Notes: generated by a model not told the origin, from the sequence alone. Shown: positions 37,042 through 40,850, numbered from the stretch's first letter. The stretch: DNA of 64,000 bases from Bacteroidota bacterium (GCA_025963725.1 JAOQAE010000006.1:769952-833951), one strand, 5' to 3'. Numbers and translations are program-made.

Positions 37042-38676
37042 ATGATCTCAACCTCCAATCTTTCCTTGCGATACGGCAAACGTGTATTGTTTGACGAAGT
37101 AAGCATAAAATTTACCCCCGGCAACTGCTATGGCGTGATCGGTGCCAATGGTGCCGGAAAATCAACCTTTTTAAAGATCCTTTCGGGTGAAATAGAGCCG
37201 ACCACCGGCCAGGTTTCCATCACCCCGGGAGAGCGCATAAGCGTGCTGAGCCAGAACCACTTTGCCTTTGATGCCTTCCCTGTGCTGCAAACTGTAATGA
37301 TGGGAAACAAAAAGCTTTGGGATGTGATCAGGGAAAAAGATGCATTGTATGCAAAGCCCGATTTCAGCGATGCCGACGGGATCAAAGCGGCGGAGCTGGA
37401 AACATACTTCGCGGAAATGGAAGGCTGGAACGCGGAGAGCGATGCTGCCAACCTGCTGAGCGACCTCGGTGTGAAGGAGCAATACCACAACACATTGATG
37501 AGCGACCTGAGCGGTAAGGAAAAAGTACGTGTGCTGCTTGCACAGGCGCTGTTCGGCAACCCCGACATCCTGCTGCTGGATGAGCCTACCAATGACCTTG
37601 ACGTGGATACGATCGCATGGCTCGAGAACTTTTTAGCTGATTTCGAAAATACGGTGATCGTTGTTTCCCACGATCGTCACTTCCTCGATTCGGTGTGTAC
37701 GCACATCGCCGACATTGACTTTAACAAGATCCAGCTATACACAGGTAACTATACTTTCTGGTACGAATCCAGCCAGCTTGCATTGCGCCAGCGCTCCGAC
37801 CAGAATAAAAAGATGGAGGACAAGCGCAAGGAATTGCAGGAGTTCGTGGAACGCTTCAGCGCGAATGCATCCAAATCCAAACAGGCCACCAGCCGTAAAA
37901 AATTACTGGAGAAGCTGGTGATCGACGACATTAAGCCAAGCACGCGTAAATATCCGGGTATCATTTTCAAAGCGGAGCGCGATTGCGGCGACCAGATCCT
38001 CGGCGTGGAAAACCTTACCAAGAAGGGGCCGGATGGCAGCACGTATTTTAAGGACATTACTTTTACGATCAACAAAGGAGATAAGATCGCATTCCTTTCA
38101 AAAGAGCACATCGCGATCAGCTCCTTCTTTGATATTGTTACGGAAGAGACTACTGCCGACAGCGGATCATTTGTATGGGGAACCACCATTACGAAATCAT
38201 ACCTGCCAAACGAGAATGCAAAATATTTCACTGCGGATTATAACCTGATCGATTGGCTGCGCCAGTATTCAAAGGACAAAGATGAAACATTCATCCGCGG
38301 GTTTTTAGGACGTATGCTGTTCACCGGCGAAGAAACATTTAAGAAATCGAATGTGCTTTCCGGTGGAGAAAAAGTACGCTGCATGGTATCGCGCATGATG
38401 CTTACCAACGCCAACTGCCTGATCCTCGATGAGCCGACCAACCACTTAGACCTTGAATCGATCACCGCATTCAACAATGCCCTGAAGGACTGGAAGCATG
38501 TGGCGCTGTTCACATCGCATGATCATGAGTTCATGCAAACGGTTGCGAACCGCATCATCGAGCTTACTCCAAACGGAGTGATCGACAAGCGCATGAGCTA
38601 TGATGAGTACATTAAAGATGAAGGTGTGAAAGCATTAAGGGAAAAGATGTATCCGAAGCTGGAGAAGGTGAAGTAG
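37042..38676 (+). CDS. ABC-F family ribosome-associated ATPase (YbiT-like)
   Basis: Two ABC domains ([28 protein letters not shown]) joined by a linker; no TM. Confidence 0.95.
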
Positions 38677-38751
38677 AATTTACCGCCCTTTCGGCTTTGC
38701 TCAGGATAAACTCCGGCGGAGAGAGGCAAAGAGTATTATAAAAACGCTGCA
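38549..38751 (+). repeat. 203-bp direct repeat, copy 1 (ABC-F 3' end + 3' UTR)
   Basis: Aligns without gaps to 40648-40850 with 6 mismatches. Confidence 0.97.
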
Positions 38752-38770
38752 GGAATGCGGCGTTTTTTTT
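38740..38770 (+). terminator. Intrinsic terminator of the ABC-F gene
   Basis: aaaaacgctgca-ggaa-tgcggcgtttttttt. Confidence 0.8.
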
Positions 38771-38842
38771 GCCGCAGATTCGCAGATAAATGCATTATAT
38801 AGTTTTTATTAAAGGAATTTGGATTTGAGTATTAAAAAGAGG

Positions 38843-38850
38843 TAAGTTTG
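38843..38850 (+). promoter_or_regulatory. Bacteroidota -7 promoter box (TAAGTTTG) of the HEPN gene
   Basis: TAnnTTTG with TTTG at 38818-38821 (21-bp spacer). Confidence 0.6.
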
Positions 38851-38876
38851 ATAAACAATATATTAATTGAATCATT

Positions 38877-40064
38877 ATGGATTGGAAAGAAGCCAAACAT
38901 ATAGAAAACAATCGTTACGATTTACCCGGCGACTGGTTAAAAATAGAATATTTTGAGGCGCTTAATATTCTATTTAGAGTAGAGAACTCTTTACGAATTT
39001 TCGTGTTTATCATTCTTAAAAACGAATTTCATGATAAATGGAAAGATCTATCGATAACAAGTGATGATGCTGAGTCCTCTACTATTGGCGCTATTGCTAA
39101 AAGGCGTTTTTCTCAAGATAAAAATTATGCTTATTTAGGATACGTTATAACAGGGCAATTACTTCATTTAACCAGCGGGGAGCTTATAAGAATTATAACA
39201 TCTGATACTTATTGGAAGCTATTCAAAGGTTATTTTTTGGGGTCAAAAGAAATTATTAAAAATAAACTAGATGAAATTGGAAATGTTAGGAATTCTCTTG
39301 CTCATTTTAGGCCTATTAAAAAAGGAGATCTTGAGCTTGTTAAACAAAATGCCATTCATACTCTTTCAGAAATTGAAAAAACTATGATTGATTTTATTAT
39401 GTGTCCTGATATTGTGCCAACTAATACAGAAGATAATTGGTACAAAGAAATTAAAATCATTGGCACGGAGGAGTGCAAAATACGATTTAAGCAAAGTAAG
39501 AAAGAAGAATGGATAAAATTAATTTTATCGTTTAACTCTCCTGTTATAGAAAGGGGTGATTCTTTCGGCTACGCAGCAACGACAGTTAATTTAAAAACAG
39601 ACAAAATCTTAATCAATTACTTAAATCTTTCAAAGTACGCAATTAGCGTAACGGAATCCCTTCCTTCTGTTTATGTAAAAGAAAAAGACCTTGAAAAAAT
39701 AGAATTTCTAAAGCATATACAGTTTACATTTAGTAAAAAAACTTTAGAAAACAAATATTCTGAAATCAAAACAGAATTAGAAAAAATTTTCTTGCACATA
39801 TCTAAAGAACTCGAGCTCATAAAAGATGACAATTTAGCGCGGGGGAAATTAATTGAAGTTGTTTCATGCTATTTCGAAAAACATGAATCCGGTGAATTTT
39901 ATTTTTATGATGGGAGGGCATTTAGAACCAGTTACAATGAAGCAACACCAGTGGAATTCTGGGGTGAATATAATTATCCCTCATATGATTTTATCACTGA
40001 TACTAATAAATACCCTTGGATGCCAGTACCTATCTCTGAAGATAAAAATAACTTACCTTTTTAA
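38877..40064 (+). CDS. Swt1-like HEPN domain protein (putative RNase/defence effector)
   Basis: N-terminal LFRVENSLRIFV helix and R-x4-H motif RNSLAH (39288-39305); markedly AT-rich compared with flanks. Confidence 0.7.
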   Translation: MDWKEAKHIENNRYDLPGDWLKIEYFEALNILFRVENSLRIFVFIILKNEFHDKWKDLSITSDDAESSTIGAIAKRRFSQDKNYAYLGYVITGQLLHLTSGELIRIITSDTYWKLFKGYFLGSKEIIKNKLDEIGNVRNSLAHFRPIKKGDLELVKQNAIHTLSEIEKTMIDFIMCPDIVPTNTEDNWYKEIKIIGTEECKIRFKQSKKEEWIKLILSFNSPVIERGDSFGYAATTVNLKTDKILINYLNLSKYAISVTESLPSVYVKEKDLEKIEFLKHIQFTFSKKTLENKYSEIKTELEKIFLHISKELELIKDDNLARGKLIEVVSCYFEKHESGEFYFYDGRAFRTSYNEATPVEFWGEYNYPSYDFITDTNKYPWMPVPISEDKNNLPF

Positions 40065-40077
40065 TCCGACATCTATC

Positions 40078-40293
40078 TTACCAATTTATTAGATCTTTCA
40101 ACCCAACACCCAACGCCTTCGAAATCTCCAACAAAGAATAAAGTGTTGGATTAACCTTCCCATTTTCCAGCTTCTCAATAGCTTGGCGGTCCTTGCCGCA
40201 AGCCCGGGCAAGATCCGACTGGCTCCAACCTTTTTTGGCTCTGAGTTCCACAATCCGTTGACCGATCTTTTTCTTTAGCTGTTCTTTAGTCAC
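40078..40293 (-). CDS. XRE-family helix-turn-helix regulator
   Basis: IGQRIVELRAKKGWSQSDLA...IEKLENGKVNPTLYSLLEISKAL. Confidence 0.93.
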   Translation of the reverse strand: MTKEQLKKKIGQRIVELRAKKGWSQSDLARACGKDRQAIEKLENGKVNPTLYSLLEISKALGVGLKDLINW

Positions 40294-40301
40294 GGAACAA
40301 A

Positions 40302-40387
40302 TGTCAGCCTATTATACGACAAAAATGTCATACAGAAAGTTGACAAAGTAATTTTATTTATTAAATTTGTCATATAAAAATATGACG
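40302..40387. promoter_or_regulatory. Three TGTC-N12-GAC(A/G) palindromes, probable XRE operators
   Basis: 40302-40321, 40326-40345, 40368-40387, overlapping the divergent promoters. Confidence 0.65.
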
Positions 40388-40627
40388 ATGAAAAGCGAAA
40401 TAATTCTCAATGACAACCAAATCGCCTTACTTAACCAGCTTGAAAAGCTCTTCGAATATGCGCCCGCAGAGAGCATCAGTAAAAGCTTGCATGAAGTCTT
40501 TTTCAGCTATCTGCAAAACAACACAGATACATTTCCGGATAATTTTGAAACAATTGCAGGAGATTTTCAGTTTCTGATGCAGTTCATACGGGAAGCCGAA
40601 AAGATCAGCGGTGACAAAAAAATATAA
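40382..40627 (+). CDS. Small acidic helical hypothetical protein divergent from the XRE gene
   Basis: About 81 aa; TAAATTTG box at 40362-40369 places the start at ATG 40382 or 40388. Confidence 0.7.
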   Translation: MTMKSEIILNDNQIALLNQLEKLFEYAPAESISKSLHEVFFSYLQNNTDTFPDNFETIAGDFQFLMQFIREAEKISGDKKI

Positions 40628-40647
40628 CTTTAAGCCATGATAACAGC

Positions 40648-40850
40648 ACCGCATCATCGAGCTTACTCCAAACGGGGTGATCGACAAGCGCATGAGCTAT
40701 GATGAGTACATTAAGGATGAAGGCGTGAAAGCATTAAGGGAAAAGATGTACCCGAAGCTGGAGAAGGTAAAGTAGAATTTACCGCCTTTTCGGCTTTGCT
40801 CAGGATAAACTCCGGCGGAGAGAGGCAAAGAGTATTATAAAAACGCTGCA
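40648..40850 (+). repeat. 203-bp direct repeat, copy 2 (orphan ABC-F 3' fragment + UTR)
   Basis: Encodes [14 protein letters not shown] but is preceded by an in-frame TAA at 40641; followed by a variant terminator to 40866. Confidence 0.97.

Follow-up and report, generated by a model that had tools for sequence, protein, structure and literature searches.

Organization of the locus

The window analysed here is a stretch of 64,000 nucleotides from a Bacteroidota bacterium (GCA_025963725.1 JAOQAE010000006.1:769952-833951), and it carries an intact ABC-F ATPase gene whose 3' end occurs a second time, as an orphan with its own terminator, about 2.1 kb further downstream. The ABC-F gene (37042..38676, + strand) encodes a protein of 544 amino acids, in which Pfam recognizes ABC_tran in two stretches and ABC_tran_Xtn. 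This order of two ABC ATPase domains and an ABC_tran_Xtn linker, with no membrane domain, fits the class. The score against NCBIfam NF011646 is 640.8 bits, under the cut-off of 762, and the protein is therefore called YbiT-like and not a confirmed equivalog. Between the two gene ends lie three open reading frames (ORFs): a gene for a Swt1/AbiF-like HEPN protein of 395 amino acids with a C-terminal alpha/beta domain (38877..40064, +), a gene for an XRE-family helix-turn-helix (HTH) protein of 71 amino acids (40078..40293, -), and a small ORF listed with 86 amino acids (40367..40627, +). The initial annotation, made from the sequence alone, had described the same three ORFs as free of recombinases, and Pfam revealed no recombinase domain in any of them.

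Two alleles of the ABC-F gene end

A repeat scan and a pairwise alignment identified a gap-free direct repeat of 203 nucleotides at 38549-38751 and 40648-40850 (spacing 2099), with six mismatches and 97% identity. It consists of the last 128 nucleotides of the ABC-F ORF and 75 nucleotides past the stop codon, which is the extent originally annotated. Similarity continues past the 203 nucleotides, through both terminator hairpins, to about 38770 and 40867, and in a search of the organism's own genome copy B matched copy A over 220 nucleotides at 95%. Copy A (38549..38770, +) comprises the ABC-F 3' end, a 75-nucleotide untranslated region (UTR), and hairpin A (38740-38770; loop GGAA, one G-U pair). 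Copy B (40648..40867, +), delimited by alignment, own-genome search, and folding, comprises the orphan ABC-F 3' end with 42 codons and a stop codon, lacking a start, followed by the UTR and hairpin B (40839-40866; loop TTC, perfect stem). A hairpin of 12 bp and a subsequent U run fold in each copy, in agreement with the earlier view that each ends in its own terminator variant; a simple consensus terminator scan over 38500-41000 gave no sites, although both hairpins fold well.

The onset of homology is abrupt at 38549/40648. The sequence to the left of 40648 is unrelated, and the pairwise alignment places a non-homologous joint at 40647..40648, that is, 20 nucleotides past the stop codon of the small ORF, where the DNA is fused into the middle of the ABC-F codon series. 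Only two copies of the repeat are present in the 4.79-Mb genome (seven contigs searched). The remaining own-genome matches, 23-27 nucleotides long and located in four places, are all to a REP-like motif at 38761-38787. Self-comparison of the genome revealed no further long gene with its 3' end duplicated 1-10 kb away at an identity of at least 90%.

The comparison set was one genus in the order, represented by 68 sampled species. Nineteen ABC-F loci were fetched first, and those of G051 and G050, which were reached through homologues of the small ORF, were added to give 21 relatives' loci. ABC-F orthologues within the genus share 84-99% amino acid identity. The closest relative is G051 (99% for ABC-F, and 86.7% at the nucleotide level over 9.2 kb); the ABC-F protein of G050 is 94% identical.

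The two copies differ at five coding positions (GGA/GGG, AAA/AAG, GGT/GGC, TAT/TAC, and GTG/GTA in copies A/B), all of them synonymous, and at a sixth position in the UTR; the alignment reproduced the list of changes given initially. With 24 synonymous and 99 non-synonymous sites, the probability that five of five randomly placed changes are synonymous is 2.8e-4, so that copy B is a functional allele of another lineage by origin and not a decayed local duplicate. The proportion of synonymous differences (pS) between the copies is 0.21, compared with 0.37 for the whole ABC-F gene between the window and G051, the sample being small. Since the former value exceeds half of the latter, the partner lineage was not a near-clonal strain. 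Both measures support the proposal of the initial annotation that the two copies came from functional alleles. In a four-way alignment, terminator A is identical to the native terminator of G050 and terminator B matches that of G051, while the six A/B substitutions side with G051 or G050 in no consistent pattern.

These data bear on one alternative, a local duplication in the organism's own lineage, by slippage or illegitimate recombination, with subsequent drift of the copies. The presence of only two copies, located near each other, and the failure to find a donor would be expected in this case. Although the orphan copy does not belong to any translated gene, its coding differences are synonymous throughout, and each terminator variant is native in a different sister species, so that a local duplication is very improbable. 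A comparison of single-nucleotide polymorphisms (SNPs) with G051 and G050 assigned neither copy as native; both copies are equally distant from G051 (14 of 126 coding positions each). The proposal that copy B represents the native end, pushed aside, gained no support: copy B and the following 4.2 kb are missing from the closest relative, and in SNPs and terminators the two copies show a mixture of G051 and G050 variants. In principle, the two copies might allow the 2.1 kb to be lost by RecA-dependent recombination.

Assembly support

One unbranched contig of 1985 nucleotides from the public run X1 covers 38722-40706, i.e. both insert junctions and 59 nucleotides of copy B. The depth of the X1 contigs is 29.6 over the insert, compared with 33.8 and 33.1 in the flanks. 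The interval 40627-40660, for which a lack of spanning sequence had been named as the sign of a chimeric assembly, is crossed by this contig. The X1 contigs are an independent Logan assembly; X1 holds 99% of the sampled words and is possibly the source run of the genome, in which case they represent a second assembler on the same reads. The evidence across the junctions consists of contigs built with k=31, in which recombinants across the 63-nucleotide identical stretch, excision products, and circles are invisible. In two other runs of the same study, X2 and X3, only the conserved ABC motif was detected (bins 38308-38561) and the organism was absent.

A chimera of two co-occurring strains would suit a metagenome-type sample and repeat copies that differ in the manner of strain variants. 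It is hardly credible in view of the unbranched contig over both junctions and its depth, and the tail of the small ORF and the middle of the ABC-F gene share no k-mer able to create the joint. Two other readings of the assembly data were discarded. The difference between a depth of 29.6 and one of 33-34 is too small to indicate partial excision and is confounded (one figure per contig, AT-rich insert). A loose contig end at 38787, considered as a possible HEPN-less variant, turned out to be a REP-like copy at window position 43779.

The locus in related genomes

The ABC-F gene and a convergent DEAD-box helicase gene are separated by only 0.5-1.0 kb in five of the 19 loci (G014, G004, G019, G022, and G008), the helicase gene directly following ABC-F in these five other species, as compared to 13.5 kb in the window. 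The tight layout is ancestral. Judged by this comparison, the region from ABC-F to the helicase is best regarded, within this genus, as an accessory locus of hypervariable content. A second ABC-F 3' end was found in none of the 21 relatives' loci, G051 and G050 included. One candidate, on contig G020:C269, proved to be a paralogue (61% identity) truncated where the contig stops.

In G051, the order is ABC-F, UTR, terminator, about 600 bp of REP-like repeats, XRE gene, and small ORF, followed directly by the homologue of window position 45106 and onward; the HEPN gene, the second ABC-F end, and 40868-45105 are absent. In G050, the ABC-F gene and its terminator are followed by a gene for 426 amino acids, the XRE gene, the small ORF, unrelated genes, and the helicase. 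The 426-residue protein matches PADLOC family PDC-S64 at 6.4e-10, its gene has a GC content of 0.22-0.27, and it is unrelated to the HEPN protein (E 4.3). The XRE proteins encoded at the same place are 90-91% (G051) and 87% (G050) identical to that of the window, and the small-ORF products 66% and 47%, the last value being obtained by tblastn. XRE orthologues of at least 87% identity occur in exactly three of the 68 genomes, namely the window genome, G051, and G050. The XRE/small-ORF pair thus appears, from gene order, to be resident at the ABC-F site in three species, and three states were found for the slot that extends from the ABC-F terminator to the 3' end of the XRE gene: with the HEPN gene (window), with the PDC-S64-like gene (G050), or empty (G051).

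These observations revise the initial annotation in part. It had presented the 2.1 kb as one foreign cassette; since the XRE gene and the small ORF are found at the same place, and with no repeats, in G051 and G050, the stretch is not one foreign unit, and only the HEPN gene is specific to the window. The suggestion that the ABC-F 3' end is a variable spot with swappable defence-type cargo is borne out by the three species. Of what had been anticipated for relatives, alternative cargo was encountered (in G050, with none in G051), and the same bracketed arrangement was not, given the 0/21 second ABC-F ends.

Copy B heads an accessory block of 4.2 kb (40868..45105), delimited by Pfam annotation and comparison with relatives. 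It contains a 152-residue ORF (-), a SpoIIE-type phosphatase gene (-), a 247-residue ORF, a response regulator gene, a REP-like element (43776-43843), a 181-residue ORF, and a gene for a DUF4919 protein. The block is absent in G051, and no syntenic counterpart was detected in the other 67 genomes, a weak negative since four candidates per genome were scored; the unpublished genome G053 gave one weak match only. Synteny with G051 resumes in the right flank (45106..53442), with ORFs of 248 and 165 residues, a TonB-dependent receptor, a FecCD-type ABC importer, a 219-residue ORF, and the DEAD-box helicase (-). Compared with G051, 40648-45105 is a second additional piece in the window besides the HEPN gene; the two species are syntenic on both outer sides, and the locus is composite.

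The HEPN-type cargo gene

The GC content falls to 0.28-0.32 over 38800-39850, compared with 0.42-0.53 in the ABC-F gene, and is about 0.30 in the HEPN gene. The left edge of the HEPN insert lies 17 nucleotides into a REP-like element, of which these first nucleotides, GCCGCAGATTCGCAGAT, remain (38771..38787, +; identified by motif search). The motif has 20 copies in the genome, and all others continue differently after it. Members of the REP-like family that starts with GCCGCAGATTCGCAGAT are usually located just past terminators, the examples in the window being 38771-38787 and 43776-43843, and elements related to this family fill the 600 bp from ABC-F to XRE in G051.

The assignment of the 395-residue protein (HEPN395) was based on Pfam, PADLOC, a sequence motif, and a fold model. 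Pfam PF18731 (Swt1-like HEPN) matches it at E 4.5e-4 with 20.9 bits, below the gathering cut-off of 27.5, and is precomputed for many HEPN395 homologues of 45-70% identity. PADLOC family PDC-M34B matches at 1.2e-8. Both PDC-M34B and PDC-S64 are candidate systems, whose defence role here is predicted from family resemblance. An RNSLAH motif of the R-x(4-6)-H type occupies residues 138-143, and R138, N139, and H143 are the same in all of the 28 homologues aligned. The family comprises 485 proteins at E <= 0.001; the best foreign match is 74% identical. In structural comparisons by VIA-align of an AlphaFold model (pLDDT 81.7, pTM 0.82), residues 21-175 matched HEPN proteins best, in agreement with a four-helix HEPN fold: the C-terminal domain of yeast Swt1 came first (4pqz_A; Z 8.8, rmsd 3.0, 126 aligned) and then AbiF bound to its ncRNA (8vz6_B; Z 8.4, rmsd 4.6, 149 aligned); further rows after these two included AF_0298, the HEPN domain of AbiA, and Csm6, with a Z of 7.0 for 2hsb_A, Z values of this size being middling for helical folds. 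Foldseek against the PDB returned nothing at E <= 0.001 for the model, and the C-terminal alpha/beta half had no clear structural match. On these grounds, the protein is predicted to be an RNase acting in abortive infection.

The HEPN gene is present in only two of the 68 genomes, that of the window and G064. Tblastn with the HEPN protein gave no matches in 50,697 phage records and no full-length match in 72,556 plasmid records, where one match with 32% coverage was obtained. Among 47 genome loci of HEPN homologues, none adjoins an ABC-F gene and none has a small-ORF neighbour; an XRE gene was seen near one of them only, as a weak match (34%) about 5 kb away in locus L061. The XRE protein and the small ORF, therefore, do not travel with the HEPN family. 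Duplicated gene 3' ends were not found flanking the HEPN homologue at these 47 loci or the XRE homologue at 45 metagenome loci; the direct repeats detected there are REP/MITE-like or belong to cassette arrays. In two flavobacterial loci, L062 and L063, HEPN395 homologues are located in arrays of 125-143-nucleotide repeats, 1-1.6 kb apart with one gene between them (e.g. L063, 1535-10629; repeat ends ..GCTAAC.. and ..GTTAGC..). These ends resemble the integron attC consensus, and the arrays may be integron-type cassette arrays that carry the HEPN395 gene.

The XRE regulator and the small ORF

The XRE protein (XRE71) matches HTH_3 at 1e-16 and a PADLOC 'control protein' model at 1.3e-11. Its gene is convergent with the HEPN gene, 13 nucleotides apart, and from this position the protein is a likely controller. 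The divergent intergenic region towards the small ORF (40294..40387) contains repeated TGTCA/TGACA words, read from the sequence and partly conserved in G051, and presumably includes the operator and promoters. Several of the words are kept in G051 (L114, 10035-10087) and are probably operator sites. The small ORF has no Pfam, NCBIfam, or PADLOC match. Homologues occur in five of the 68 genomes, and the five-member alignment, with nine invariant columns, makes ATG 40388 the likely start, which gives 79 amino acids.

Relatives of XRE71 with 65-88% identity were retrieved from 45 metagenome loci, none of which is beside an ABC-F gene. A convergent ORF of at least 90 amino acids ends between -40 and +80 nucleotides from the XRE gene in 23 of 36 loci with at least 400 nucleotides of flank, and a small divergent ORF starts within 200 nucleotides upstream in 26 of 39. 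The genes abutting XRE vary by locus: they code for an Abi_C protein, HNH or AspBHI/Mrr-type nucleases with C5 methylases, an ORC/CDC6-like protein, a DprA-like protein, and many proteins with no family. The small-ORF family is found beside four of the 45 XRE homologues only. This setting is similar to that of the controller (C) proteins and further small HTH regulators of restriction-modification and other defence systems, in that XRE71 matches 'control protein' models and its relatives abut nuclease/methylase and Abi_C genes. In C-protein systems, the C gene lies upstream of the R gene; here, in contrast, the XRE gene is convergent with the cargo and divergent from the small ORF, and a regulatory function is suggested by position.

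Two further occurrences of the pair were recorded. A second islet of similar build is present in the same genome outside the window (G000:C6, about 729.1-731.5 kb; L116, 8130-10525). It consists of nrdA, a gene for an Abi_C-domain protein (253 amino acids), ORFs of 132 and 208 amino acids, a convergent XRE gene for 72 amino acids, and a divergent small-ORF homologue (41%); the GC content is 0.31-0.41, and the nrdA end is single. In locus L117 (G042:C1, 10120-13336), the XRE/small-ORF pair adjoins a subtilase gene matching PADLOC IetS at 4.7e-90.

Recombinases, DNA uptake, and the search for a donor

The window genome (completeness 97.9%) encodes two Xer-like tyrosine recombinases of 306 and 307 amino acids and no serine recombinase, a survey that covered these two enzyme classes. 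Since the two tyrosine recombinases are Xer-like and no serine recombinase is present, no integrase is implied in the origin of the repeat pair. The genome, 4.79 Mb in size, is unusually poor in integrases. Elsewhere in it, a 61-nucleotide direct repeat (90%) occurs at G000:C4 659039-659098 and 695652-695711, at a distance of 36.6 kb; a minus-strand gene for 664 amino acids overlaps with the second copy at its 3' end, and the stretch could be an integrated element.

The initial annotation had put forward a satellite or reduced integrative element. On this explanation, the repeats would be the attL and attR sites of an integrase-less element, cis-mobilisable or satellite-like, inserted in the ABC-F 3' end by a helper recombinase acting in trans. 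Direct repeats that restore the reading frame at a gene 3' end are the classic footprint of site-specific integration, the first 28 nucleotides of the repeat are identical in both copies, and the cargo is low in GC and defence-like. No helper was found, however, beyond the two Xer-sized tyrosine recombinases, and the lack of a third repeat copy means that the genome has no attP-like site. The XRE/small-ORF part occupies the same site with no repeats in sister species, neither the HEPN (0/47) nor the XRE (0/45) homologue loci adjoin ABC-F, and the HEPN gene is not represented in the phage records and not at full length in the plasmid records. An att site of 220 nucleotides ending exactly at the T run of a terminator would also be atypical. 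Taken together with the 0/21 second ABC-F ends in relatives, this makes an integrative element improbable.

The DNA-uptake genes for ComEC and DprA are present. The dprA gene is located at G000:C6:832749-833366, i.e. at window positions 62798-63415, and its presence in the window had been pointed out initially. A metagenome scan with a 35-nucleotide IUPAC pattern for the ABC-F end and UTR gave no stretches, and hence no conspecific contig and no empty site.

Origin of the orphan ABC-F end

We lean towards the view, as the simplest account, that the repeat is a recombination scar, at which two diverged versions of a hypervariable locus were merged in a single recombination, and that its copies are not the ends of a mobile element. 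The locus would have been built in three layers. The first would be the resident XRE gene and small divergent ORF just downstream of ABC-F, and the second the slot from the ABC-F terminator to the XRE 3' end, which would accept single low-GC genes of the defence type. The third would be the orphan ABC-F 3' end with its own terminator, representing the point at which another, diverged form of the locus was attached. Incoming DNA of a related lineage may have recombined by homology at one of its sides, within ABC-F or else within the genes shared from 45106 onwards, and the other side would have been joined at 40647/40648 with no homology; the incoming part may have been either half. We infer this route from the arrangement as homology-facilitated illegitimate recombination after DNA uptake, a process described in transformable bacteria, or as its near equivalent, the RecA-mediated single-crossover insertion of a circularised fragment. 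The outcome would be two alternative versions of the locus in tandem, with 220 nucleotides of the ABC-F end duplicated. One homologous boundary and one joint lacking homology, the features of homology-facilitated illegitimate recombination, are both present.

A rival to this reading is a Campbell-type insertion in which a relative's fragment of 2.1 kb, from the ABC-F end and terminator A to the small ORF, circularised and entered by one RecA crossover with the resident ABC-F end. The geometry agrees exactly, since such a crossover would have duplicated the 220 homologous nucleotides as direct repeats, one on either side of the insert, and the repeat would begin, on its left, where the circle had been closed. 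The repeat copies are allelic, and a crossover inside the repeat would be expected to give the mosaic of variants seen in the comparison with G051 and G050. Such an insertion requires a prior illegitimate circularisation and is hence not simpler than the scar described above. It makes the XRE gene and the small ORF incoming, yet both are resident in two sister species, in G051 with the homologue of window position 45106 directly after them. No circle junction was present among the contigs, which were searched in place of raw reads. We consider this insertion unlikely.

Several observations count against the scar by one-sided homology. The sequence fits equally well a single crossover with a circular intermediate and one-sided homology with an illegitimate joint. 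Neither parental arrangement, that is, ABC-F, terminator B, and the 152-residue ORF contiguous, or the small ORF and 45106 contiguous within the species, was observed, as no donor or conspecific genome was found. A sliding identity profile against G051 over 33700-38699 revealed no step or breakpoint inside ABC-F. Competence genes are near-universal, both families being found also in most control genomes, and the presence of ComEC and DprA does not demonstrate that the organism is transformable.

A further objection comes from G064, where the genus has its one other HEPN homologue (73% amino acid identity) and where the 3' end of the upstream gene carB is present in three copies. In this island (L059, G064:C9), the last 69 nucleotides of carB occur in tandem at 6304-6372, 6417-6485, and 6545-6613; the copies share 77-87% identity, differ by many non-synonymous changes, and are each followed by a REP-like hairpin element. 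Directly behind carB lies a low-GC island of 4.3 kb (6669-10993) with two genes lacking a family (456 and 317 amino acids) and the HEPN395 homologue, and an inverted REP-like copy ends it at 10994-11062. Because the ABC-F end is the only case of its kind in the window genome and G064 has its carB ends, the score of two for two deserves attention: duplicated ends at both HEPN loci of the genus could point to a process more specific than occasional illegitimate recombination. It fits foreign cargo that regularly enters by homology in the end of the upstream gene; the cases number two, however, and the carB copies are old and could differ in origin.

In its general form, this would mean that accessory and defence genes of the genus, which has hardly any integrases, move by DNA uptake as 'homology-armed' pieces, whose arms are a housekeeping 3' end with its terminator and the conserved XRE gene. 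We regard such a general rule as unlikely and put it forward as speculation. If it were true, orphan gene ends would be regular footprints of the process (ABC-F here, and the three stacked carB ends in G064), and the XRE gene, which is 65-88% identical across 45 unrelated metagenome loci, would double as regulator and portable landing pad.

Relation to known systems and significance

Among known elements, the locus resembles the cis-mobilisable elements (CIMEs), which are reportedly att-flanked, integrase-less remnants of integrative elements at a gene 3' end, as at fda in Streptococcus thermophilus. Common to both is recombinase-free DNA enclosed by direct repeats where a housekeeping gene ends. 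CIMEs, however, share att sites with the integrase system of a cognate integrative and conjugative or integrative and mobilisable element, while the search here gave neither a system of this kind nor an att core or a related element. Usual att cores are far shorter than the 203-220 nucleotides of this repeat. Direct repeats are thus present, and neither a cognate recombinase nor recurrence of the element was found, so that the locus is not a member of the att-flanked integrase-less elements.

A closer parallel is offered by the Rhs, contact-dependent inhibition (CDI), and type VI secretion system (T6SS) loci, for which orphan 3' regions were explained, in T6SS/Rhs loci, by homology-facilitated illegitimate recombination (Kirchberger et al. 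2017; PMC5361080). As in that model, there is a homology anchor in a conserved upstream gene, an illegitimate other end, an old 3' end kept downstream, and no integrase. The displaced ends in those loci are variable toxin tips with immunity genes. In the window, by contrast, the corresponding piece is conserved, being the terminal part of a housekeeping ABC-F gene and sharing 97% identity with the live one; the variation lies in the accessory DNA downstream, and there is one displacement, not an array.

Defence hotspots flanked by core genes, as described in P. aeruginosa (PMC10250203) and E. coli (PMC10121019), also have a fixed place that is empty or holds different defence genes across relatives. 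The slot beside ABC-F takes up far less space, with single genes of 1.2-1.3 kb; one of its borders is the conserved XRE gene, so that it is not delimited by core genes alone, and it was followed through three species, not a pan-genome. Merodiploids that arise by transformation in S. pneumoniae are similar in that the uptake of partly homologous DNA gives tandem partial duplications (PMC3784515). They are reportedly large, unstable, and formed between repeats of one genome, whereas here the two copies are alleles that stem from different lineages, and the event has become fixed in the population that was assembled. What appears to be somewhat new at the locus is the combination of a housekeeping ABC-F end of proven allelic origin with a swap slot of very small size that has a conserved XRE gene at its border.

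Alone, the orphan ABC-F end changes nothing known about the formation of islands. It is a clean natural example of accessory or defence DNA being added beside a housekeeping gene with no dedicated recombinase, and the slot from the ABC-F terminator to the XRE gene is a handy place for seeking new single-gene defence systems. Conspecific genomes or a cultured relative would allow recombination-driven exchange of cargo to be tested in Bacteroidota-like soil bacteria.

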